Positions 3,241-13,656 of a DNA stretch of 58,951 nt are shown here, piece by piece. Under the pieces are notes generated by a model. The model saw only the letters and a program-made list of their open reading frames with translations, was not told the DNA's origin and did no database searches. Position numbers and translations under genes: made by a program. The stretch spans positions 1 to 58,951 of the IMG/VR virus record IMGVR_UViG_3300010413_000033; one strand, given 5' to 3'. This DNA comes from a virus (lineage: Duplodnaviria > Caudoviricetes). Positions within the stretch are counted from its first letter, which is position 1; each line of letters starts with the position of its first letter.

Positions 3241-3301
3241 GAACTGGCATGAATCGTGCAAGGCAGGATTGCAGGAAAGACTATCCTCTGAGGTGTGGCC
3301 T

Positions 3302-4765
3302 ATGAAGATATTTGGGTACGAGCTGACCATAAGGAAAGAGAAAGACGACTACGCCAAGGCGCGTAGCCGCTACACTTCAAAGATCCTGTCCGACTTTGAC
3401 TACGATAGGCCGTTGTGGACGGAAGGGAACTACTACTCGCTGCTGCAAGCCTACAGGAGCTGGGTGTTTGTGTGCGCGAACAAAAACGCTACGTCGTTTG
3501 CCTCTGTCCCTCTCAGGCTGTACAGCGGCAAGGAAGTAGTGGGGGATGACGGTAGGCCGAAACCTGTCAAGATAAAATGGCCTACGAGACCTGTGAGCGA
3601 CAGGCAGCGGCTGAACCTGATGGAGAATAGTAGTCTGATGCAGCACAGGATGTTCAGGAAATCCGTGGACGTAGTGGAGATAACAGACCATCCGTTTCTG
3701 GAGATGATGAACAACGTCAATGGGTTCATGAACAGTTTTTCGTTGTGGGAGCTGACAGAGCTGTTTCAGGAGTTATGTGGGAATGCCTACTGGTATGTAG
3801 TGAGGGATGGAGTAGGGACTCCGGTGGAGCTTTGGCCTATCATGCCGCACATGATAAAGGTCATCCCTGACAGGGAGAAATTCATAAAGGGATATCTCTA
3901 CGAGAGCAATATGAACAGGGTGAACATGGAGGAGAAGGAAGTAGTGCACTTCAAGTTCCCTTCACCTACGTCGTTGTACTACGGGAGGGGGCCTTTGGCC
4001 GCGATTACCGATATCTACGCCATAGAGCAGAACATGAACAGGTTTGAGAATGCCATGTTTGCGAACATGGGGAGGCTGGATGGCGCTTTTGAAACGGCGG
4101 AGGAATTGAACGACGTTGAATTCGAACGGCTTAAAAAGGAGATACGCGAGAGCTTCTACGGAGTGCACAACGTTGGGAAATCCCCGTTGTTGGAGAAAGG
4201 GGTTAGCTACAAGAACTACGGTTTTGCGCCTAAAGAGCTGAACCATATACAGGGAAGGGCGAAGATAAAAGAGGCCATAGTGAATGCCTTTGGGCAGTCG
4301 ATGGGGATGTACGACAAGGACGCTACACGCGCAAACGCTGAAGTCGCTACGTTCATGTTCATGCGCGACACTATTAAGCCGAGATGCCTACGCGCCGAGC
4401 AGAAGCTGAATGAGAAATTAATACCGCAGTTCGATCCTGGCCTTTGGGTGGCATTCGATGATTGTGTGCCTGAAAACAGGGAGGTGAGGCTGAAGGAAAT
4501 TGAGGCTCACTTGAAATCTGGATATTCGACTCCTAACGAAGAGAGGCGCAAGGACAACATAGAGGATGCGGAATGGGGCGATAAGCCTATCCTTCCAGGC
4601 GGCTACGCTCCTCTTGGAAGCATTCCTCCGAACCAGACAGGGCAGGGAGCTGGGCAACAGGGCGACGCTACGGAGGAGGAGCTTGCGAAGTTTGTCGATG
4701 AGGTAGTAGGGACTATCTTGGAGAAGCTGGGCAGCCAGGATGTAGTGAAGAGGCTTGCGGCATGA
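3302..4765 (+). CDS. Phage portal protein (HK97 family)
   Basis: Motifs ELCGNAYWYV, PVELWPI, VVHFKFPSP..YYGRGPL, LEKGVSYK and YSTPNEERR. Start placed at ATG 3302 after GAGG. Confidence 0.95.
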   Translation: MKIFGYELTIRKEKDDYAKARSRYTSKILSDFDYDRPLWTEGNYYSLLQAYRSWVFVCANKNATSFASVPLRLYSGKEVVGDDGRPKPVKIKWPTRPVSDRQRLNLMENSSLMQHRMFRKSVDVVEITDHPFLEMMNNVNGFMNSFSLWELTELFQELCGNAYWYVVRDGVGTPVELWPIMPHMIKVIPDREKFIKGYLYESNMNRVNMEEKEVVHFKFPSPTSLYYGRGPLAAITDIYAIEQNMNRFENAMFANMGRLDGAFETAEELNDVEFERLKKEIRESFYGVHNVGKSPLLEKGVSYKNYGFAPKELNHIQGRAKIKEAIVNAFGQSMGMYDKDATRANAEVATFMFMRDTIKPRCLRAEQKLNEKLIPQFDPGLWVAFDDCVPENREVRLKEIEAHLKSGYSTPNEERRKDNIEDAEWGDKPILPGGYAPLGSIPPNQTGQGAGQQGDATEEELAKFVDEVVGTILEKLGSQDVVKRLAA

Positions 4766-4766
4766 G

Positions 4767-6293
4767 ATGGAGCAGCATAGTCACTACATAGAAGACAGCC
4801 AGCTGAAAGGGCTGATAACGAAGGCACTACTGAGAAGCCCTGACTTCAAGGAAGCTTGCGCTAATATAGTAGTAGAGAATATAAGGAAAGGGCTGAACGA
4901 CAGGCGGCTACTCTACGAGATAGAGCTTTGGACGAAGTTCGTGGAGCGTAGCACTACGTGGGAGAGGAAATACAGGGACAGGATGATAGAGGTGCTGGGG
5001 CAGCTGGGCAGTGAAGTCTATGCCAACATGAAACGCTACGGGAAATTCCATGTGGCTAAGAAAGAGGACTTGTCCGACTGGATACCTCTTAAAGGGAGGT
5101 GGGAATCAGTACTACACAGGGAGAGCATGATCCTGAATCAGGCCATAGTTGAGGACTACGGCAAACAGGCTATGGCTGAGCTTAACGACTACTACGAAGT
5201 GAGCAAGGAGAAGAGAGTAAAGACCGCGATGGCGGAGCTTCCATTTTACAATCCGGTCACTGGGGAGGAGAGATGGTTCGATGCCAACAATCCGAACGTA
5301 GTGGCAAGGCTTCAACAACGCAGCATCAAATTCGCCAAAGAGGTAGTAGGCACTACGGAGCAGCAGATAAGGGGGATCCTCGCGGAAGGGATAGGACAGG
5401 GCGAAGGGATGCGAGAACTACGCAACAGGATTCGCAGCTACTTTGAAGGAGATTCGATAAGGAACAGGGCGGAGATGATAGCGCGTAGTGAGACGATATG
5501 GGCCTCCAATGCAGGGGCTGTATCCGCCTACAAGCAGAGTGGCGTAGTGGAAGGAAAAGAATGGATAGTGGCGGATGACGAGCGCACTTGCGACTACTGC
5601 CGTAGTATGGGAGTTCAATATGGGAAGGGCAGAGCCGTAGCGTTGGACAGGCCATTCTTGAACAAGGGAGACTACGTATTCGCTGGAGCCAGAGCGCCGC
5701 AAAGCATTCCTGGGGTGGCAGGGTTCCTGCCAAACTGCAAGGGCTACGGAGATGGAATCACAAAGGGAACACGTAGTTGCCTCACTCCGTTTGATGTGGC
5801 AAGGTCTAAAAGGGCTAAAGAAGCTTATACCGCTTGCACAAAAGAAATGACAGATAAAGGTGTCCAGTTTGAGAGGAAACTTGCAAAGAAGCTGGGCCTT
5901 ACATGGTTGAAGAACAACGAACATTGGGACTGCCTGAAAGGTGGGACGATAGCAGACTACTACGCAAGAAGTAAGAAAGTGACAGACGTAGTGGAATGTA
6001 AAAGGCTGATGGTCAGACAGGCAGATCGTATCACTTGCAAGAACATACCTAAGAGAAATGCAGAGGCGGCGGAGTTTGGGAAGCACATAAAAAAGCACTA
6101 CGTTATTTTCGATGACCGCCCTGGCATGGGTGGACAGTTGTACTACGCGGATAAATTGGGCGACTTTCGTTTTGGTACAAAGGGCAAACCTCCAAGGAAT
6201 TTAAAGAAAGTCACAATGGAAGACATAGATGGGTTTATCAATCCTGAGAAGAAACGACGACGGAGGTATTTTCATCTGGAGGTAGTGAAGTGA
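4767..6293 (+). CDS. MuF/gpF (SPP1 gp7-like) minor head protein, N-terminal half, fused to a PD-(D/E)xK-like nuclease domain
   Basis: RAEMIARSET and KEWIVADDERTCDYC are MuF motifs, but the PPxHPxCRC end is missing. The C-terminal domain has G.QFE.KLAKKLG...WD...VVECKR, a restriction-endonuclease-fold pattern. Confidence 0.8.
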   Translation: MEQHSHYIEDSQLKGLITKALLRSPDFKEACANIVVENIRKGLNDRRLLYEIELWTKFVERSTTWERKYRDRMIEVLGQLGSEVYANMKRYGKFHVAKKEDLSDWIPLKGRWESVLHRESMILNQAIVEDYGKQAMAELNDYYEVSKEKRVKTAMAELPFYNPVTGEERWFDANNPNVVARLQQRSIKFAKEVVGTTEQQIRGILAEGIGQGEGMRELRNRIRSYFEGDSIRNRAEMIARSETIWASNAGAVSAYKQSGVVEGKEWIVADDERTCDYCRSMGVQYGKGRAVALDRPFLNKGDYVFAGARAPQSIPGVAGFLPNCKGYGDGITKGTRSCLTPFDVARSKRAKEAYTACTKEMTDKGVQFERKLAKKLGLTWLKNNEHWDCLKGGTIADYYARSKKVTDVVECKRLMVRQADRITCKNIPKRNAEAAEFGKHIKKHYVIFDDRPGMGGQLYYADKLGDFRFGTKGKPPRNLKKVTMEDIDGFINPEKKRRRRYFHLEVVK

Positions 6294-6864
6294 GTAGTGT
6301 CGTTTTCAAGTTGTCTCCTGCCATAGGCAGTGAGAAATGTGCTGGATGTGGGAAGCAGTCTGATAATGGCAGCTTTCCTCTGCGTTTCAACGGAAAGCCT
6401 ATTTGTTTAGAGTGCATTGAAAAGCGATTCAGCGACAACATCACGGTAGCTACTACTGAACAAGTGATAGTGATGGAGTAGTGTAGTGAGTTATCATCTC
6501 TGCGATGCAAACGGTTTTCTTGATTTAGCTTGCACTACGGAAGGGTTGGGGCAGCTACATGAAGAAGTATTTGCATCAGAGGGATTTCCACTACTGAAAG
6601 ACTTTCTGGAAATGGGCGCTTGTCTAATTACAGATCAGCTATTGGAAGAAATAGACTCTTTTAAGGCACAGGACAAGTATGTCCAGAATACAGTGAAGGG
6701 ACTACGTAGGAATATTAGAAAGGCGGATCTCATAATCATTATCACAAATGGGGAAGAGACAAAGCCGAAACCACTGGTTGAATATTTGAAGGAAATAGAC
6801 TTCTCGAAGTTTGAGGAAGAGGAGCACAGTAGTTACTATGATAGTGTAGTGGAAAAGGCTGGAG
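5682..6864 (+). mobile_element. Putative 1176-bp inserted cassette (nuclease domain, Zn-finger gene, immunity-like domain) bounded by GCTGGAG direct repeats
   Basis: GCTGGAG at 5682-5688 and 6858-6864, both encoding Ala-Gly in the same frame. Removing the insert restores NKGDYVFAGGALEITYEKIDWPPLHPK. Confidence 0.55.
6290..6481 (+). CDS. Small Zn-finger protein
   Basis: GGAGG SD; GTGA overlap with the upstream stop; CAGC...CLEC. Confidence 0.6.
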   Translation: MSSVVFKLSPAIGSEKCAGCGKQSDNGSFPLRFNGKPICLECIEKRFSDNITVATTEQVIVME

Positions 6865-9800
6865 GTGCACTGGAGATCACTTATGAAAAAATAGACTGGC
6901 CTCCATTGCATCCGAAATGCTTCCTTGATGGGCAAGTGCCTGTCTATACCAGCAAAGGATGGAAAGCCATAGGCACTATTGTTCCTGGCACTTTGGTTCT
7001 GACGCACGAAGGAAGATTCAGAAAAGTAAAGGAGTTGTTAGTGACTCCATTACAGACACCGGATGCTACTAAGCTATCACTACATGGCAGGAAAGACAAA
7101 ACGTTGTCCCTGACAGACGAGCATCCTGTCATGATCAATGGTAAGTGGAAAGAGATAAAGGATGTGCGTAGTGGTGACACGATCTCCTTCTTGGCTGGTA
7201 GTTGTGAAAGATGTGGAGCAGATATTCCCTACTTTAAAGACTACTGTAGTTTGTCTTGTCGTAGTAAGGACATAACAGATGGGCAATGGTCAAGACCAGA
7301 GCATAGAAAGAACATGTCTGAAAAGACTACACAGCAACTACATAGGGAGTACGCAAATGGGACGAGAGATCCTTATGTAATAACAAGGAAGGCAAATGCT
7401 AAAACAAGACTGCTAGTGAAGCAGGGACTACTGTCACTACAAAGGCCGGAAGTAATAGCTAAGATGATAGAGGCTACTAACACACCGGAACAGAGAAAAG
7501 CTAATAGTGATAGGATGAAAAGAAATAACCCTATGAAGGATAGGTCTACGGTTGAAAGGAGAACCAAGACCTATTTAAAGACACTACGTAGTAATCCAGA
7601 TATTCATCCAAATAGGATAATGGCTCAAAGGGGGTTTATGAGCAGCCTTGAAAAAAAAGTCAAGGATGTACTAGACACTATGGGCCTCAACTACGAATGC
7701 CAATATCCTATATCAAAATACTTTGTAGACTTTGCCTTGGTGAGTGACAAGATAGCGATAGAGGCGGATGGTGATTATTGGCACCAAGACAAAAAGAGAG
7801 ATAGAAAAAGACAGAAAGACATTGAGAAAAATGGTTGGGTAGTGATTCGATTTTCTGAGAGTGATATAAAGAAAGAAGCTATCCCTATGGGTATGATGTC
7901 AGAAATAAATAGAGTAGTGAACAACCATTCTGGCAACTACAAATTCATGGACGTAAAGGTCGATGTAGTTGAAAGGTGGAAAGTGAGAAAGGCTAGAACA
8001 CTATACAATCTAAATGTTGATGAGGATGAAAGCTACATAGCGGCTGGCTTTGTAGTGCATAATTGCCGTTGTACTGTTTCCCCTGTGCTCATACCGATGG
8101 AGAGATTGCTTGACACTATGCCTGTAGGTAGTATTCCACAGGTTGGGGATGTTCAAGCGCCGCCTACTCCTGCCCCTGTTCCATCACTACGCCCTGCTAC
8201 TCCAAGACCTGCTACGCCTACGCCTGTTCCTGCTACGCCTGTAGCTCCATCAGCATTAACAGAGTCAGAGATCCTAGAAGACCTTCTTGAAGGTTGGCAG
8301 AATGAGGTCAACATAGCGGCGCAGGCAGGGTTAGCAGATGTCCCTATTACTAAAATGTTTGCGGTTCAGCAATTTGAGAATGTAGTGAAGCAGGGACTAC
8401 GCAACGCTGGGATGGATGAATCATTGTATGCGGAAGTAATACGCGATCTGAAAGTAAAGTATCCGTATCTGGAATCAGCATTGGAGAATGCCCCTGATTT
8501 TCAAGGAGCATTAGGTGGAGATATGGCAGAAGCCATAGACACTACAAAAGCCTTTTTATATGGACAGAAGCTAGTAAATTCAACACGATTTTTGCCTAGT
8601 GAAATGCGTAACGTATTCAATTCAGCTGATATTGATTTAGAGCAAGGGATTATTTTATCCAAGGTGCCAGCTAGTGAAGGTGTTGCTTACAGAATCACTC
8701 ATCTTACAAGAGGGCTATCTCTTGTAGAGTATATTGATAGTGAAGAACTTGAGAGACTATGGCGTATATATGAAGATAGAGCTATGACATTTGCTACTGA
8801 AAGATATATGAATAGTGCTATTGACTACATGGGTTTGCCAGGGATGGTAATAGAAAAAGCAGCAGATGATTTATATGAATTGCTTTCAGAAGGATATAAA
8901 GACACATGGAAGGAGAGGTTCTACTACCAAAATGGGTTTTTATCTGATCCTGCTCGTTTGCATTCTGCTAGAAGGTATTTGACAGAAGAGATGGCTTCAG
9001 GGCCTAGATATGCCTTCAAAGAAATAGCTATTTTAAAGTCAGACCCCATAGGGTTAGGGTCTAGGATGATGTCGGATGTGGGAATGGTAGATCTGGTCAT
9101 TGACTTTGATGATCTGCTACGTTCGGCAAATAGTTCCATGAAAGACTACGTGGCTATAGCACTACAAAGATATCTTCCGGCAGCTGCGGTCGCTACCAGT
9201 ACGCAGGGAATGATAACATATGAGCTAACTGACTACGTAGATCAGTATGCTACTACTACGGACAATGTAAGGGCATGGAAAGCCAAAAGATCGGATCTTG
9301 ATCGCATAGTGAGCAATGGTGTTTTGGTAAATGAGGGACCGATAGGTGATCCTGGGATTAATGTCACTTTGAAATTGGATATGGATGTTGCTGGGGTAAA
9401 AGAAAGCTTAGTGTTTAAGCCTGTATCTGGAGAGACATATTTACATCATGGTGAAAAGGTTAGGAAGACGGTAGATGAGACAGTAGCTACACTAGCAAAG
9501 AGAGAAGCAATAAGTAGTGAGATAGGGAATATGATGGAGTTTGATCACATAGACGTAGTGACGGCTGCCTACGGAGTGAAACGTGGTGAGGCAGGAGTAT
9601 ATGTAAAGTTCATGAAAGGCTATGAGGAAGAAATAAAATATGTAGGGAGAAGACTGACAGATGAAGAAGTATTTGATATGAGCGTGTATGACTACTTGAT
9701 AGGAAATCTAGACAGGCATAAAAGAAATTGGATGCGTAGGCTTTCTGATGGACGACCACTGATGATAGATCATGGCTATGTGCTGCCGGACTACGGTCCA

Positions 9801-10106
9801 GTAAATGGGATGATTAGAGAGTTTAGGGCTGGTTACTACGGAAGGATTAATGACGGTCTTGATTGGAGTGTAGACTACACTTATAAGCACAAAGTGATAG
9901 AGAATCTGAAAAAATTGGATATTCCAGATTTAGCAAAACGCTATGGCCTGTCAGAAAGTAGTGGAATGATAAAAGAGCTGAAACGCAGAAGGGATAGATT
10001 AGTAACGTATTTGGAAACAGAAACATTTAACGAAGTCTTTATTGGTAGTGGCTACGATGGGTGGGGCCTGTATGAGGGACACATGGACTACCTATTTCAA
10101 CCATAG
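6486..10106 (+). CDS. Composite protein: immunity-like N-terminus, MuF C-terminal motif, intein, Pro-rich linker, C-terminal PI3K/PI4K/HipA-like kinase (putative toxin)
   Basis: PPLHPK-[intein]-CRC completes the MuF motif. Kinase motifs: LVFKP, REA, DYLIGNLDRHKRNW and IDHG. Confidence 0.85.
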   Translation: MSYHLCDANGFLDLACTTEGLGQLHEEVFASEGFPLLKDFLEMGACLITDQLLEEIDSFKAQDKYVQNTVKGLRRNIRKADLIIIITNGEETKPKPLVEYLKEIDFSKFEEEEHSSYYDSVVEKAGGALEITYEKIDWPPLHPKCFLDGQVPVYTSKGWKAIGTIVPGTLVLTHEGRFRKVKELLVTPLQTPDATKLSLHGRKDKTLSLTDEHPVMINGKWKEIKDVRSGDTISFLAGSCERCGADIPYFKDYCSLSCRSKDITDGQWSRPEHRKNMSEKTTQQLHREYANGTRDPYVITRKANAKTRLLVKQGLLSLQRPEVIAKMIEATNTPEQRKANSDRMKRNNPMKDRSTVERRTKTYLKTLRSNPDIHPNRIMAQRGFMSSLEKKVKDVLDTMGLNYECQYPISKYFVDFALVSDKIAIEADGDYWHQDKKRDRKRQKDIEKNGWVVIRFSESDIKKEAIPMGMMSEINRVVNNHSGNYKFMDVKVDVVERWKVRKARTLYNLNVDEDESYIAAGFVVHNCRCTVSPVLIPMERLLDTMPVGSIPQVGDVQAPPTPAPVPSLRPATPRPATPTPVPATPVAPSALTESEILEDLLEGWQNEVNIAAQAGLADVPITKMFAVQQFENVVKQGLRNAGMDESLYAEVIRDLKVKYPYLESALENAPDFQGALGGDMAEAIDTTKAFLYGQKLVNSTRFLPSEMRNVFNSADIDLEQGIILSKVPASEGVAYRITHLTRGLSLVEYIDSEELERLWRIYEDRAMTFATERYMNSAIDYMGLPGMVIEKAADDLYELLSEGYKDTWKERFYYQNGFLSDPARLHSARRYLTEEMASGPRYAFKEIAILKSDPIGLGSRMMSDVGMVDLVIDFDDLLRSANSSMKDYVAIALQRYLPAAAVATSTQGMITYELTDYVDQYATTTDNVRAWKAKRSDLDRIVSNGVLVNEGPIGDPGINVTLKLDMDVAGVKESLVFKPVSGETYLHHGEKVRKTVDETVATLAKREAISSEIGNMMEFDHIDVVTAAYGVKRGEAGVYVKFMKGYEEEIKYVGRRLTDEEVFDMSVYDYLIGNLDRHKRNWMRRLSDGRPLMIDHGYVLPDYGPVNGMIREFRAGYYGRINDGLDWSVDYTYKHKVIENLKKLDIPDLAKRYGLSESSGMIKELKRRRDRLVTYLETETFNEVFIGSGYDGWGLYEGHMDYLFQP
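6918..8063 (+). mobile_element. Intein (382 aa) with DUF559/Vsr-like endonuclease and NUMOD3-like basic repeats
   Basis: Starts CFLDGQVPVYTSKGWK; block B LTDEHPV; ends LYNLNVDEDESYIAAGFVVHN followed by Cys+1. Internal YFVDFA..KIAIEADGDYWH...GWVVIRFSE. Confidence 0.92.
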
Positions 10107-10114
10107 GATATAAA

Positions 10115-10399
10115 ATGGCTACAAGAAAGAAAGATTACTATCTTAATATTTGGACATTCTCTGAGAATGAAAAGGGTGATTACACGCCTACTATTTTCGG
10201 AACTATCTACTACAGAAATGGTAAAATAGAGTATGATGGTTTATCAAAGGCCATGATAGAAGAATTTGAAGAACTTGGAATTCCATTAGGTGGAAAATTG
10301 TACTATCCAAAAGATGGCTACAGGTTTTTGGAGGCGGCATCTTTGAACATAAAAGGGACGACTATGTCGGCGGATAAGATAAGACAACGAACCTTGTAG
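10115..10399 (+). CDS. Small protein, candidate immunity protein for the kinase domain
   Basis: 94 aa, directly downstream of the MuF-kinase gene, the usual position for an immunity gene. Function inferred from context only. Confidence 0.55.
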   Translation: MATRKKDYYLNIWTFSENEKGDYTPTIFGTIYYRNGKIEYDGLSKAMIEEFEELGIPLGGKLYYPKDGYRFLEAASLNIKGTTMSADKIRQRTL

Positions 10400-10410
10400 G
10401 AGGAACTACT

Positions 10411-13400
10411 ATGAAAGCTAATATTAAACGGCTACGCGATGTAGCAGAAGCCTTTGGTAATGGTCTGATCACAACTACTATAAAGATAGTTTCTCCTGAA
10501 GAGCAGTTTGGAAAGCTATCAAAGCACTTCACCATATCTTTGAAAGAGGCATTTAAGAGATATGGCTATGAAGCATGGGATGATGGAATAGCATTGGTGA
10601 GAAAAGGTATCTCTCCGCGTGATATGGAATTTGAGGAAGGTGAGAGGGCCAGTGTTGACTACATCACTACAAGGGACATAGACCGCGACGGTGAGATAGT
10701 AGTTCCTAAAGGGATAATCCTTGACCACTACAGACAACAGCCAGTAGTGTTGTGGTGCCACGACTATCATCAGCTGCCAGTGGGGAAATCACTATGGGTC
10801 AAGAATGATGAGCTTGGGCTGATATCGAAGACCAAATATGCATCTCATCCAAAGGCCCAAGAGATATTCGACTACAGGCGCGAAGGCTTCCCTATGGCGA
10901 AGTCCATAGGTTTTATCCCATTCGAATACGCTACGCCTGATGAGTACGACAGTCTCAATTTCCAGAAGCTGGGCATTGAGGAGGGTAGTGTAGCAGGGTC
11001 CAAAGTGATCTTCACAAAAGCACTACTCCTTGAATATAGTGATGTTCCAGTTCCATCTAACCCAAAGGCTTTGCAGATTGCCATCTCAAAAGGTCTCGTA
11101 TCTAGAGACAAGATCCTAGACTACTACGGCAAGGACACATTGGATGAGGTGGACAGGCTTGACAATGCGCTACAGACTGAAATCAAGGAATCCTTTAACA
11201 TCACAACGGAGGTGAGCGACAATGGGGAACAAGAAAAAGCAAACCAAGAAGCCGAAGAAGTCAAAGCAACAGCAGCAACCAGTAGTGACAACGGGCAAGA
11301 AGGGCAAGGAGAAGAAAAAGAAATAAAGTTTGATATTGAAGAGGTAGTAGTTGAAAATAACATAGTACAAGAAGCTCCAAAAGAGGGGGATGAATGGGCT
11401 AACTTCTACAAGGTGGATGAGAAAGATCTTGAAGAAGGAGTCCCTACGGAGAAACCTTATCCCAATGAACATGCTTGTAGACTACGTGACCCAAGCAAAT
11501 TTCAGGATGGTAGTTTCCGTAGGACTACGAGAGACCACGAAGGCAAGAAATACTCTATCATTATGGGCAAGCTCAAAGGTGAAAGCACTATGACCGAGCA
11601 AGCCTACAGATACAACAAGGCATCGTGGAGTGCCAGTGAAGCACGTAGTCATTGTAGTGGTCACAAGGGGTCGTTTGAGGCGGCTGCGAATACTGAATCC
11701 ATGTTGGATGAGGCGCTTAATAGTATTAAGGCAGTCGATGGGACATTAGTAGTGACTACTCCTAAACGTCTAACAACGCAGGAGCATGAGGTGCTGCTTA
11801 CCAGCATAGAGAAGACATTTCCGAATACTAACGTGTTGGTAGTGCAGGATGGGATAACAATTAGGAAGATAGGGGCTATTAAACAGGAATGGCAGAGCAT
11901 TAACGTAGTCAAAGACAAAGACAGTCTCACAGCCTACGTAGATGGAAAGGAACGATGGAACAGGCAGCTGTCCAAAACGTTTGATGTGGAACGTATGCGC
12001 CTTGAGCCATACAATTTTATCTATGCTCTTGCTTCAAAGTTCCTTGAGTGCAAGGTGAAAAACATTTCCATAGTTTCTCATAGCATACCATCGGCTATGA
12101 TCGGCAACTACTTACTAGGCATGGAAACTTTCCTTGGTAGTGACAACTACAAAACGCTGGATATAAGGAACATAGATAGCAGAGGTAGTGAGCTTCCTCC
12201 TATCTACGAAGACATTAGATTGAACAGCAAAACGTTTCAGCGTTTCCTTGTAGATGGAATGCGTTTTATAAAGTATGAGAACCAGAAAGAAGAGGGCAAT
12301 TTTGTAGTGAGTGTCTATCCGATATGGGGAGGGCTTGGCCTGTCTTTCTACACCGAGAAAGGGCCTATGTCCGACCATTGTGAATCACTACTTAAAGAGT
12401 TGCACGAATGGGTAGATGAAAACAACACACTACGTGGTGAGAAATTCTCACTGGGTGGCGAATTCCTGCCTATCGATAAATCAATCACATGGGAAGACAT
12501 AGTCCTTGAAGACAGGGCTATAAAAGCACTACATAAAGTAGCAGAGGCAAATCCAGCTACTTCCAGAGGCACACTTCTTGCAGGGCCTCCAGGCACAGGA
12601 AAGACTATGGGTGGTCGTGTAGTGATGAACAATACGGATGCTACCTTTATCTGGCTATCTGCAAGAGACTTTGAATATGTAGGAGCATTTGGTGGACTAC
12701 GTATGTCATTCACTATGGCTAGAAAGCTTGCTCCTACGATTCTGTTTATTGAGGATATTGACAACTGGCTTTCTGACAGGACTTTGGATCTTCTTAAAAC
12801 GGAAATGGACGGCTTGAAGCAGTCAATTGGGATCTATACGGTATTGACCAGCAACTATCCTGAGAGATTGCCCGACGCTATCATAGACAGACCTGGGCGT
12901 TTCCACGATATACTACTCATAGACCTTCCTACTAGTGGACAGCGTGGCAGGATGTTTTCCAAATGGATGGACGATGTTTTTGGTAGTGAAGTAGTGGAGA
13001 AGGAATTTGCAGATCCAGAAGACAGAAAGAAACTACTAGATGTGACTGAAGGATATAGTGGTGCTCACATAAGAGAGTTGATAGTGTTCGCAAAATCACT
13101 ACTGGATGATGGTAGTGCAACTACTGTATCGGATGCTATGAGCATGGCTACGCAGAAGATAGCAGAGCAAAAGGAGTTGATTAACAGGCTGCGCGGAGAT
13201 AGTGAGAAGAAGAAGGGAATTGATACTAGAACATTCCGTGATGAGATAGATATTACAACGTTTGCTGATATGCGAAATGAAAAAGTAGTTGATGAGGTGG
13301 AGGAGAAAGAGGGCCGCGTACTTTCCACTAAGAATCGTAGCGTAGTGAAGAAAGCCATAGATGCTATGGGGGATGCCGTAGTCGCTTTGGATGAGCTTTA

Positions 13401-13656
13401 CAACGCTACGGAACCAGCTCCAAAAGACACTGAAAAGCTTTTGGTAGTGGAGGGAAAAGAATCAACTGATGAGCTTGTTACCATTGTGGCTACACTTCCA
13501 AAACTGAAAGAGAAAAAGAACGTAGTGAGCGATGAGGAACAGGCTAAAGAGATCATTGTTAAGCAATTGAAGGAGCTTCTATCATCGCCTACGCCTTTGG
13601 ATATAACGGCGATGGTTTCAGATAGCTTGCGTAAAAAGCAAGGGAGGCTTTCGTAG
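10411..13656 (+). CDS. HK97-type prohead maturation protease fused to an AAA+ ATPase
   Basis: Protease motifs DRDGEIV, PVVLWCHDYHQLPVGK, SIGFIP and LLEYSDVPVPSNPKAL. AAA+ motifs GPPGTGKT, LFIEDID, TSNYPERLPDAIIDRPGRF and TEGYSGAHIREL. C-terminal EGRVLSTKNR scaffold-like tail. Confidence 0.9.
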   Translation: MKANIKRLRDVAEAFGNGLITTTIKIVSPEEQFGKLSKHFTISLKEAFKRYGYEAWDDGIALVRKGISPRDMEFEEGERASVDYITTRDIDRDGEIVVPKGIILDHYRQQPVVLWCHDYHQLPVGKSLWVKNDELGLISKTKYASHPKAQEIFDYRREGFPMAKSIGFIPFEYATPDEYDSLNFQKLGIEEGSVAGSKVIFTKALLLEYSDVPVPSNPKALQIAISKGLVSRDKILDYYGKDTLDEVDRLDNALQTEIKESFNITTEVSDNGEQEKANQEAEEVKATAATSSDNGQEGQGEEKEIKFDIEEVVVENNIVQEAPKEGDEWANFYKVDEKDLEEGVPTEKPYPNEHACRLRDPSKFQDGSFRRTTRDHEGKKYSIIMGKLKGESTMTEQAYRYNKASWSASEARSHCSGHKGSFEAAANTESMLDEALNSIKAVDGTLVVTTPKRLTTQEHEVLLTSIEKTFPNTNVLVVQDGITIRKIGAIKQEWQSINVVKDKDSLTAYVDGKERWNRQLSKTFDVERMRLEPYNFIYALASKFLECKVKNISIVSHSIPSAMIGNYLLGMETFLGSDNYKTLDIRNIDSRGSELPPIYEDIRLNSKTFQRFLVDGMRFIKYENQKEEGNFVVSVYPIWGGLGLSFYTEKGPMSDHCESLLKELHEWVDENNTLRGEKFSLGGEFLPIDKSITWEDIVLEDRAIKALHKVAEANPATSRGTLLAGPPGTGKTMGGRVVMNNTDATFIWLSARDFEYVGAFGGLRMSFTMARKLAPTILFIEDIDNWLSDRTLDLLKTEMDGLKQSIGIYTVLTSNYPERLPDAIIDRPGRFHDILLIDLPTSGQRGRMFSKWMDDVFGSEVVEKEFADPEDRKKLLDVTEGYSGAHIRELIVFAKSLLDDGSATTVSDAMSMATQKIAEQKELINRLRGDSEKKKGIDTRTFRDEIDITTFADMRNEKVVDEVEEKEGRVLSTKNRSVVKKAIDAMGDAVVALDELYNATEPAPKDTEKLLVVEGKESTDELVTIVATLPKLKEKKNVVSDEEQAKEIIVKQLKELLSSPTPLDITAMVSDSLRKKQGRLS

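Follow-up and report, generated by a model that had tools for sequence, protein, structure and literature searches.

A MuF gene, a phage head gene of the cargo-carrying ('polyvalent') type, was found in two pieces in IMG/VR virus record IMGVR_UViG_3300010413_000033 (Duplodnaviria; Caudoviricetes). The window, i.e., the whole stretch of DNA analysed, is this metagenome-assembled record, a single contig of 58,951 bp with an estimated completeness of 76%. Three open reading frames (ORFs) follow the portal gene. ORF1 (the N-half) carries the MuF core with its CxxC motif and ends in a putative nuclease domain, ORF2 is a small gene, and ORF3 (the C-half) begins with a domain that we call the partner and continues with the rest of the MuF sequence, an intein and a kinase-like domain. 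The positions are listed in Table 1, and the homologous proteins, the loci, and the sequencing runs or contigs of this analysis are designated P, L and X, respectively.

Table 1. Features of the split MuF locus (window coordinates unless a locus is named)
Feature	Position	Strand	Remarks
Portal gene	3269-4765	+	Pfam Phage_portal, E 1.1e-52; MuF genes sit just 3' of portal genes
ORF1, N-half	4755/4767-6293 (ATG at 4767)	+	512 aa; MuF core and putative nuclease domain
MuF core, ORF1 aa 1-309	4755-5681	+	TCDYC (CxxC) ends at aa 282; without the PPLHPxCRC end
GCTGGAG, left copy	5682-5688	+	
Putative nuclease cargo domain, ORF1 aa 310-512	5682-6293	+	Leader SIPGVAGFLPNC...SCL with Cys, then PD-(D/E)xK core
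ORF2	6290-6481	+	63 aa; CxxC...CxxC, no His; GTG start; other frame than ORF1 and ORF3
ORF3, C-half	6486-10106	+	1206 aa/codons, open; GTG start, GGAG 7 nt upstream; same frame as ORF1
Partner domain (aa 1-~95) and acidic linker, ORF3 aa 1-118	6486-6839	+	Matches by tblastn and hidden Markov model (HMM)
MuF tail before the intein, ORF3 aa 119-144	6840-6917	+	DSVVEKAGGALEITYEKIDWPPLHPK; secure from aa 126 on, tentative for aa 119-125
GCTGGAG, right copy	6858-6864	+	
Intein, 382 aa	6918-8063	+	Cys1, TDEH, VVHN, +1 Cys; endonuclease inside
C-extein	8064-10106	+	CRCTVSPVLIP (MuF end), Pro-rich linker, unknown region, kinase-like domain
PI3/PI4-kinase-like domain, ORF3 aa 1038-1105	9597-9800	+	Pfam PI3_PI4_kinase, E 1.7e-8
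Free-standing partner genes of related loci	L002 9422-9718; L009 5638-5904; L006 9879-10163; L025 9720-10019		

Splitting of the MuF gene

The pieces were mapped with a MuF profile of 302 nodes, made from 11 intact homologues that were retrieved with the N-half. Nodes 31-270 fell on ORF1, reaching aa 310, nodes 266-292 on ORF3 aa 119-145, and nodes 290-300 on ORF3 aa 525-535. The Pfam family Phage_Mu_F aligned to ORF1 aa 203-285 with profile positions 1-84 of 112 only, and the Pfam matches of ORF3 were DUF559, MTES_1575, Intein_splicing, PT-HINT, Vint and PI3_PI4_kinase. The residues that are invariant in 15 intact MuFs (C..C ... P.H..CRC) are all retained across the pieces: both Cys residues of CxxC are in ORF1, the Pro and the His precede aa 145 of ORF3, and CRC is found at ORF3 aa 527-529. 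It was confirmed that about 1.18 kb of DNA, which occurs as a single copy within the record, interrupts the MuF gene in frame within the hairpin loop that separates CxxC from PPLHPxCRC. The initial annotation had placed the two halves in one frame in this way, with a kinase on the C-half, and both points were borne out by the profile mapping and by the PI3/PI4-kinase-like domain near the end of ORF3. It had also assigned the PPLHPx/CRC end to ORF3, without noting the intein. This end indeed lies in ORF3, with the intein separating PPLHPK from CRC.

In an AlphaFold2 (AF2) model of the intact homologue P0002 (mean predicted local distance difference test, pLDDT, 83.7), the break falls between the short beta-strands E273-277 and E283-287 after the CxxC helix, so that the C-half holds two strands together with half of the residues presumed to bind the metal. 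The model itself had no meaningful Foldseek match, and the MuF profile gave only an insignificant match among PDB sequences (E 0.48). When 5682-6857 is left out, the spacer from CxxC to PP is 41 residues long, which is inside the range of intact homologues (24-48, median 37; 21 motif-matching of 32 examined), and therefore no extra residues are needed at the junction, in agreement with the seamless joining described initially. An uninterrupted MuF-kinase would run straight across the seam as ...TTCGCTGGAGGTGCA... The exact breakpoints may be uncertain by about 7 codons, because the MuF-like stretch of the C-half may start at aa 119 (DSVVEK...) and overlap DYVFAG of the N-half. The C-half sequence DSVVEKAGGALEITYEK aligns gap-free to intact MuFs, e.g., to DEVKGTEGGVMELTYEG of P0005, with this overlap.

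The nuclease domain and its partner

ORF1 aa 310-512 is homologous to the C-terminal domains that stand behind an intact MuF in L002/P0004, L006/P0034 and L009/P0035, and further homologues were found in L025, L034 and L037. A profile search among 1.84 billion representatives returned 1103 proteins at E<=0.001, including 159 at E<=1e-30, and in most of the matches listed the domain is C-terminal or stands alone. Sixteen representatives were scanned with Pfam. Phage_Mu_F was present in eight and a weak NOV_C match in three, and portal, ART-PolyVal, intein and PI3_PI4_kinase domains also occurred among them. Among 42 aligned nuclease sequences, D83, E105 and K107 are invariant (D392, E414 and K416 of ORF1), and six members gave a weak NOV_C match. 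The best PDB matches of the AF2 model of the domain (pLDDT 83.6) in Foldseek were PD-(D/E)xK nucleases, i.e., the SPARDA nuclease, Hjc, NhoI/Eco15I and I-Ssp6803I. These matches were weak (E 1.6e-3 to 0.08, probability up to 0.99), and the profile of the domain had no match among PDB sequences. With its D...(D/E)xK motif on a predicted alpha-beta core, the domain fits the PD-(D/E)xK superfamily, as the initial annotation had proposed for the region fused to the N-half, and judged by its homologues it is a widespread cargo domain of MuF, portal and polyvalent proteins. No PHROGs or PADLOC family was found for it, and neither the nuclease nor the partner family matched a toxin or immunity family in Pfam.

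The first 95 aa of ORF3 are homologous to a small separate gene that lies 3' of the nuclease in related loci. All 38 near-length database homologues of this partner (88-104 aa) are free-standing, and they belong to no Pfam family. No PHROGs or PADLOC family was found for the partner, no member of the partner family was confirmed in GTDB genomes, and the ESM Atlas yielded only unnamed clusters below the bar. The start domain of the C-half had been regarded as new. It is fused there, as described, but it is not new, being a member of a family of free-standing genes that adjoin the nuclease.

The two families are closely linked. In 64 MuF-seeded loci plus the window, the nuclease was found in seven and the partner in the same seven, and neither was found in the remaining 58. 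A partner-seeded search returned 12 loci, of which 11 were scanned; nine of these are new contigs, L067 and L075 repeat L025 and L006, and L009 was already known and stood outside the scan. The nuclease adjoins the partner in 11/11 of the scanned loci, usually directly upstream of it, and directly downstream in L073/L074. Only three longer proteins have a partner match: that of the window, a partner-ADP-ribosyltransferase fusion (P0221), and a portal, matched weakly.

In L037 (3549-4607, encoding P0221), the partner forms the N-terminus of the ADP-ribosyltransferase, and in L034 (7932-8897) that of an XkdF-type prohead protease; in both loci, a gene ending in the nuclease lies directly before. 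N-terminal partner domains on other capsid or effector proteins thus recur directly behind nuclease-ending genes. Another arrangement was observed in L073 (189-2557) and the near-identical L074, where the MuF ORF stops in the nuclease leader (..PLC..SCL..) and is followed by the partner gene and then by an ORF that begins with the nuclease domain and continues with an HExxH peptidase-like part. By its sequence, this is another fission layout.

Predicted complex of the nuclease and the partner

A complex of ORF1 aa 150-512 and ORF3 aa 1-144 was predicted using self-built, unpaired alignments. The score was 0.79 (0.79, 0.82 and 0.74 in the runs), while the best of three controls scored 0.01. Among solved complexes, 116 of 157 attain this mark, compared with 2 of 215 mismatched pairs, a calibration that is rough here as our own alignments were used. 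The runs shared at least 60% of the contacts, and the partner had a pLDDT of at least 65. On the nuclease side, the confident interface covers ORF1 aa 314-429, including the Cys leader, two helices, and D392, E414 and K416. On the partner side, it covers ORF3 aa 1-111 with most of the near-invariant positions (M1, D7, G10, T17, G20 and G89). The model supports an interaction between the two domains across the catalytic D/E/K, and the interface pattern would fit an inhibitor that covers the active site. This contact would also tether the two polypeptides, because the partner forms the N-terminus of the MuF-kinase chain.

Sequence variation was also observed in this region. At window 6008-6051 (within ORF1 aa 418-433), run X6 carries five differences at a low depth of 3.6, of which four are non-synonymous. 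This part of ORF1 follows closely on the ExK motif and, up to aa 429, belongs to the predicted partner interface.

Persistence of the interruption

Part of 5200-7300 is present in 17 public runs from 6 studies, two of which runs may be the source of the record, and no RNA run was listed among them. Runs that contain the phage come from several studies (2020-2025). Contigs were compared from four runs of four studies, and parts that were uncovered in some runs were not interpreted. Contigs of two other studies, X3 5324-6399 and X8 5552-5787, span the left junction. The right junction is spanned by X6 6652-6891, which extends only 27-34 nt to the right and is borderline under the 31-letter rule. 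Because independently assembled contigs bridge the junctions, the layout is no assembly artefact, and it circulates in sediments. A chimeric contig might be suspected in a metagenome-assembled record that is 76% complete. This explanation is extremely improbable, as a 7-bp repeat is too short to mislead an assembler and both junctions are in frame.

The initial annotation had also raised the idea of a switch, in which excision or splicing removes the 1176-bp interval at the DNA, RNA or protein level and yields an uninterrupted MuF-kinase. The in-frame repeats and the compatible seam length agree with this idea, but the remaining evidence speaks against it. An Rfam scan of 4500-10500 found no intron family and, at E<=1, only one chance snoRNA match; a group I or group II intron was rejected on this basis. 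In frame 0, several stop codons lie between 6294 and 6485. No Hint or intein Pfam match was found in ORF1 at E<=0.1, and no Hint domain in ORF3 aa 1-125. After GDYVFAG, the N-half reads ARAPQSIPGVAG..., which is homologous to the leaders of nuclease domains, and the right junction reads ...VVEKAGG/ALEIT, with no Cys/Ser...His-Asn plus Cys/Ser/Thr at either junction. A fractured gene with a split intein was rejected because both flanks have non-intein homologues and the junctions lack intein residues. The insert encodes no recombinase and has no inverted repeats at its ends. Finally, a joint across 5682-6857, which precise deletion would leave, was absent from the contigs of 4/4 runs, though contigs drop rare variants. 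We consider the switch highly improbable. The best reading is that the 1.18-kb interruption is never removed and that only the separate intein would splice.

Ends and origin of the insert

The two copies of GCTGGAG lie at the junctions, in frame and exactly 1176 bp (392 codons) apart, as first described. The match is an exact 7-mer with no extension on either side. When pairs of windows were taken at random from the genome of the window, 6.4% of 5000 pairs shared an in-frame match of at least 7 nt of the kind seen between the homology-defined junction windows (16% when all frames are counted). The + strand of the window contains 15 copies of GCTGGAG. The probability of a chance match is about 6%, and chance had been allowed for in the initial annotation. 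The repeat fits a target duplication or microhomology, but it is weak and alone no evidence. A transposable element with target-site duplication was rejected: the insert ends carry no terminal inverted repeats, a Pfam scan of the insert detected no transposase or recombinase domain, and the 7-bp repeat has p ~0.06. Composition was uninformative on the origin, the GC content of the cassette being 0.41-0.47 vs a genome average of 0.43-0.48; the outlier is the portal/MuF-N region (0.50-0.55). In a promoter/terminator scan, promoter-like sites were rarer than in shuffled sequences, and none within the insert was useful on the + strand.

The present layout could have another origin than an insertion. 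In an unequal, non-homologous crossover, a MuF-nuclease phage, cut immediately behind the partner gene, would have been joined to a MuF-kinase phage, cut within MuF near DSVVEK, and the first MuF tail would then have been lost. The present state would be the same, and GCTGGAG would be chance or microhomology. The gap-free alignment to P0005 with its overlap on DYVFAG agrees with such a crossover, as do the frequency of the 7-mer in the window, its roughly 6% chance of matching, and the missing inverted repeats and transposase. In addition, L002 is syntenic, with MuF-nuclease, partner and a protease-AAA gene in this order. On the other hand, an insertion would be a single event and the crossover takes two, the DYVFAG overlap is based on low-information profile positions, and the GC content does not set the pieces apart from the genome average. 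We regard this origin as rather improbable, though still worth serious consideration.

The initial annotation had listed a Zn-finger gene in the insert, and ORF2 is indeed a small Zn-finger-like ORF between the halves. It matched no Pfam or PADLOC family and gave one weak PHROG match. A 14-nt direct repeat, GTAGTG(A/T)AGTGAGT (13/14 identical), at 6282-6295 and 6478-6491, 196 bp apart, marks the ORF1/ORF2 and ORF2/ORF3 junctions and flanks ORF2. In L002, the nuclease stop and the partner start overlap directly, with no gene between. From its sequence context, ORF2 may itself be a small piece of DNA that was inserted secondarily between the stop codon of the nuclease and the start codon of the partner.

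Proposed assembly of a gene in pieces

From the observed anatomy, the homologies of the pieces, the close association of nuclease with partner, and the junctions found in independent samples, we propose a non-covalent 'gene in pieces', in which the inserted effector-partner pair tethers the halves and one MuF anchor carries both nuclease and kinase. We give this proposal an even chance. About 1.18 kb would have entered the MuF-type head gene of a sediment phage within the CxxC-PPLHPxCRC loop. The insert would be an effector module of other MuF genes, composed of the nuclease, the Zn-finger-like ORF and a partner gene of about 98 aa. The nuclease would have become the C-terminus of the N-half, and the partner, by losing its stop codon, the N-terminus of the C-half, giving the order partner, MuF tail, intein, linker and kinase. 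ORF1, ORF2 and ORF3 would be translationally coupled through overlapping or adjacent stop and start codons and GGAG sites; the ORF1 stop and the ORF2 GTG start overlap as GTGA. The partner would bind the nuclease over its active site and keep it silent in the producing cell, and the same contact would join the polypeptides non-covalently, so that the MuF anchor would bring both nuclease and kinase into the capsid. The outcome would be a two-chain counterpart of the single-chain MuF-nuclease-kinase proteins of related phages. Nuclease and kinase were found in one chain in eight cases (P0057, P0063, P0065, P0066, P0067, P0094, P0129 and L025). Of the two possibilities offered initially, one anchor with two effectors thus gains support from the predicted complex and from these proteins, while the switch does not stand.

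Several observations weigh against this proposal. P0045 (403 aa) is a second, independent MuF-nuclease without PPLHPxCRC, in which the CxxC loop runs straight into the nuclease leader. In view of P0045, the MuF may not need its tail, and the C-half could be orphaned. Among 37 representatives with MuF and nuclease, only the window and P0045 are tail-less; the others retain the tail motif, either as such or in a variant form, and in two of these proteins an intein occupies the site. The DNA of P0045 was found neither in IMG/VR nor in GTDB genomes, its sole contig being one of 4001 bp in Logan/ENA. In the complex prediction, the nuclease:partner contact was obtained, but the MuF tail (ORF3 aa 119-144) made no confident contact with the MuF core. 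The model thus gave no confident sign that the metal site is rebuilt in trans, as had been suggested initially. Binding itself rests on a model score from unpaired, self-built alignments that covered aa 1-144 of the C-half.

The divergence of the pair in the window and the restricted occurrence of the layout also weigh against the proposal. The nuclease of the window is the most divergent of its set (25-36% identity). Seven single-nucleotide polymorphisms (SNPs) were seen among the runs in its domain at low depth, five of which are non-synonymous and two synonymous, compared with 0/4 non-synonymous in the portal and MuF-N. The partner departs from its family at near-invariant positions (Y6C, D14L, A16C and D88N) and appears in the alignment as the most divergent member. 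Such divergence of both could reflect relaxed constraint. Furthermore, the layout is known from one genome only, and no close relative with an empty site was found in IMG/VR, JGI metagenome contigs or GenBank phages. In these searches, the N-half had no match and the C-extein no relative in IMG/VR, the N-half matched one distant locus (26% identity) in the JGI metagenome contigs, and tblastn against GenBank phages gave 12 records, all below 60% identity and none covering 80%.

These points lead to an alternative in which the cassette displaced the MuF tail and nothing is reassembled. The N-half would be a working MuF-nuclease with a dispensable tail, the partner would serve for immunity only, and the tail-intein-kinase would be orphaned or decaying. 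P0045 and the missing tail-core contact are in line with it. So are two published reports: a small ORF downstream is the rule for MuF toxins (89.4% of 191, over half of these with nucleases; PMC5576092), and recombination of cassettes into the main locus has been proposed for polyvalent proteins (PMC5512222). However, the 1206 codons of ORF3 are open, the intein motifs and all invariant residues of the MuF tail are intact, both junctions are in frame, and the phage is present in runs of several studies from 2020-2025. Other partner-effector fusions lie directly behind nuclease genes, and any binding between nuclease and partner would physically tie down the fused C-half. We judge displacement unlikely, albeit the weightiest of the alternatives.

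The proposed non-covalent assembly of the halves leads to a wider view, which we put forward tentatively, with less than even confidence. A nuclease-inhibitor pair resembling a toxin-immunity pair may have gained a new use in capsid cargo, where it would act as a heterodimerisation clasp. The partner, placed on the N-terminus of another effector (the kinase here, the ADP-ribosyltransferase in L037, the prohead protease in L034), would dock on a capsid-targeted nuclease. In this way, phages could build multi-chain 'polyvalent' cargo assemblies, and a MuF gene could outlast a cut inside its most conserved motif without any splicing.

Relation to known systems

The closest precedent is nrdA of Aeromonas phage Aeh1. 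According to Crona et al. 2010 (PMC3045599), this gene is split by mobE, and assembly of the fragments depends on tails that arose with the insertion, C-terminal on the first and N-terminal on the second, with no RNA, protein or DNA splicing. As in the window, a phage gene is divided in two by inserted DNA that leaves extensions on both fragments. Unlike the window, Aeh1 has, in that account, a free-standing mobE homing endonuclease and short unique tails, and the assembly was shown by experiment. Here, the extensions are a whole nuclease domain and its cognate partner, in frame, and their binding is predicted; the target is a virion cargo protein, while that in Aeh1 is an enzyme. As for homing, the nuclease family is found mostly as in-frame C-terminal cargo or alone, and no evidence of homing was seen.

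In MuF toxins, as described by Jamet et al. 2017 (PMC5576092), MuF follows the portal gene and carries a C-terminal nuclease-type toxin, with a small ORF downstream. The window resembles these toxin-immunity modules in its MuF after the portal gene and its C-terminal nuclease domain, with the MuF incomplete in this chain. The toxins in that account belong to temperate phages and stand behind a complete MuF, whereas here the module lies inside MuF and the 'immunity' ORF is fused. Polyvalent proteins, as outlined by Iyer et al. 2017 (PMC5512222), consist of a head-borne MuF carrier fused to several effectors including kinases, and small neighbouring cassettes were suggested to recombine into the main locus. 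The window likewise has a MuF carrier with several effector domains, a kinase included, but the set is spread over two chains, while the polyvalent proteins described there have many domains in one polypeptide. The split-intein 'fractured genes' of Dassa et al. 2009 (PMC2677866) are also phage genes in two with a small gene between. Unlike these, the junctions of the window have no split-intein halves, and its true intein is contiguous and lies 20 codons on. The layout is a variant that combines known kinds, namely the fragmentation of Aeh1 nrdA and the MuF toxin-immunity cassettes.

If the halves are joined by the inserted pair, this would be a second, mechanistically distinct protein-level repair of a fragmented phage gene, after Aeh1 NrdA, and toxin-immunity modules would be tied to the assembly of injected effector complexes. 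The analysis also names the pair itself, an uncharacterised, widespread nuclease with 1103 cluster representatives and its obligate partner, about 98 aa long and without a Pfam family, which together might serve as an orthogonal protein-protein docking module. Domain-level mosaicism can, by this example, put a new effector inside a carrier domain and not behind it.

The intein and a neighbouring gene

The intein (CFLDG..., TDEH, VVHN|C) sits in frame within PPLHPK|CRC, 20 codons past the other interruption. Its Pfam match to Intein_splicing (32.7 bits) is below the cut-off of 35.8, and the matches to PT-HINT and Vint were weak. With Cys1, a block B TxxH, His-Asn and a +1 Cys, 6918-8063 nevertheless has the sequence features of a classical intein, and it contains a DUF559/Vsr-like endonuclease at ORF3 aa 399-465 (7680-7880; DUF559 E 9.1e-14). 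At this site, P0014/P0225 and P0138/P0223 also have homologous inteins (46% and 52-53% identity, respectively), and in P0138/P0223 the intein is followed by the same nuclease domain as in the window. L009 has a related intein at another site of its MuF-type protein. Among the paper titles listed for inteins together with MuF or with phage head morphogenesis, none dealt with a MuF intein, which is not proof of absence.

One X3 contig (depth 2, 25 letters on the shorter side) skips 582 bp in frame from 7313 to 7896. The signal is weak; such a skip would remove the endonuclease part and give a possible mini-intein variant. Long insertions at the same HP(N)|C site were also seen in the MuF-nuclease proteins P0111 and P0162, and these may be further intein alleles; the insertion of P0111 starts with Ala, not Cys.

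The gene 3' of the MuF region (window 10411-13656; L002 9723-12923) has a prohead-protease-like N-terminal part fused to an AAA ATPase. A Peptidase_S78 match was obtained in the L002 homologue, and the pairing is unusual for a head module.

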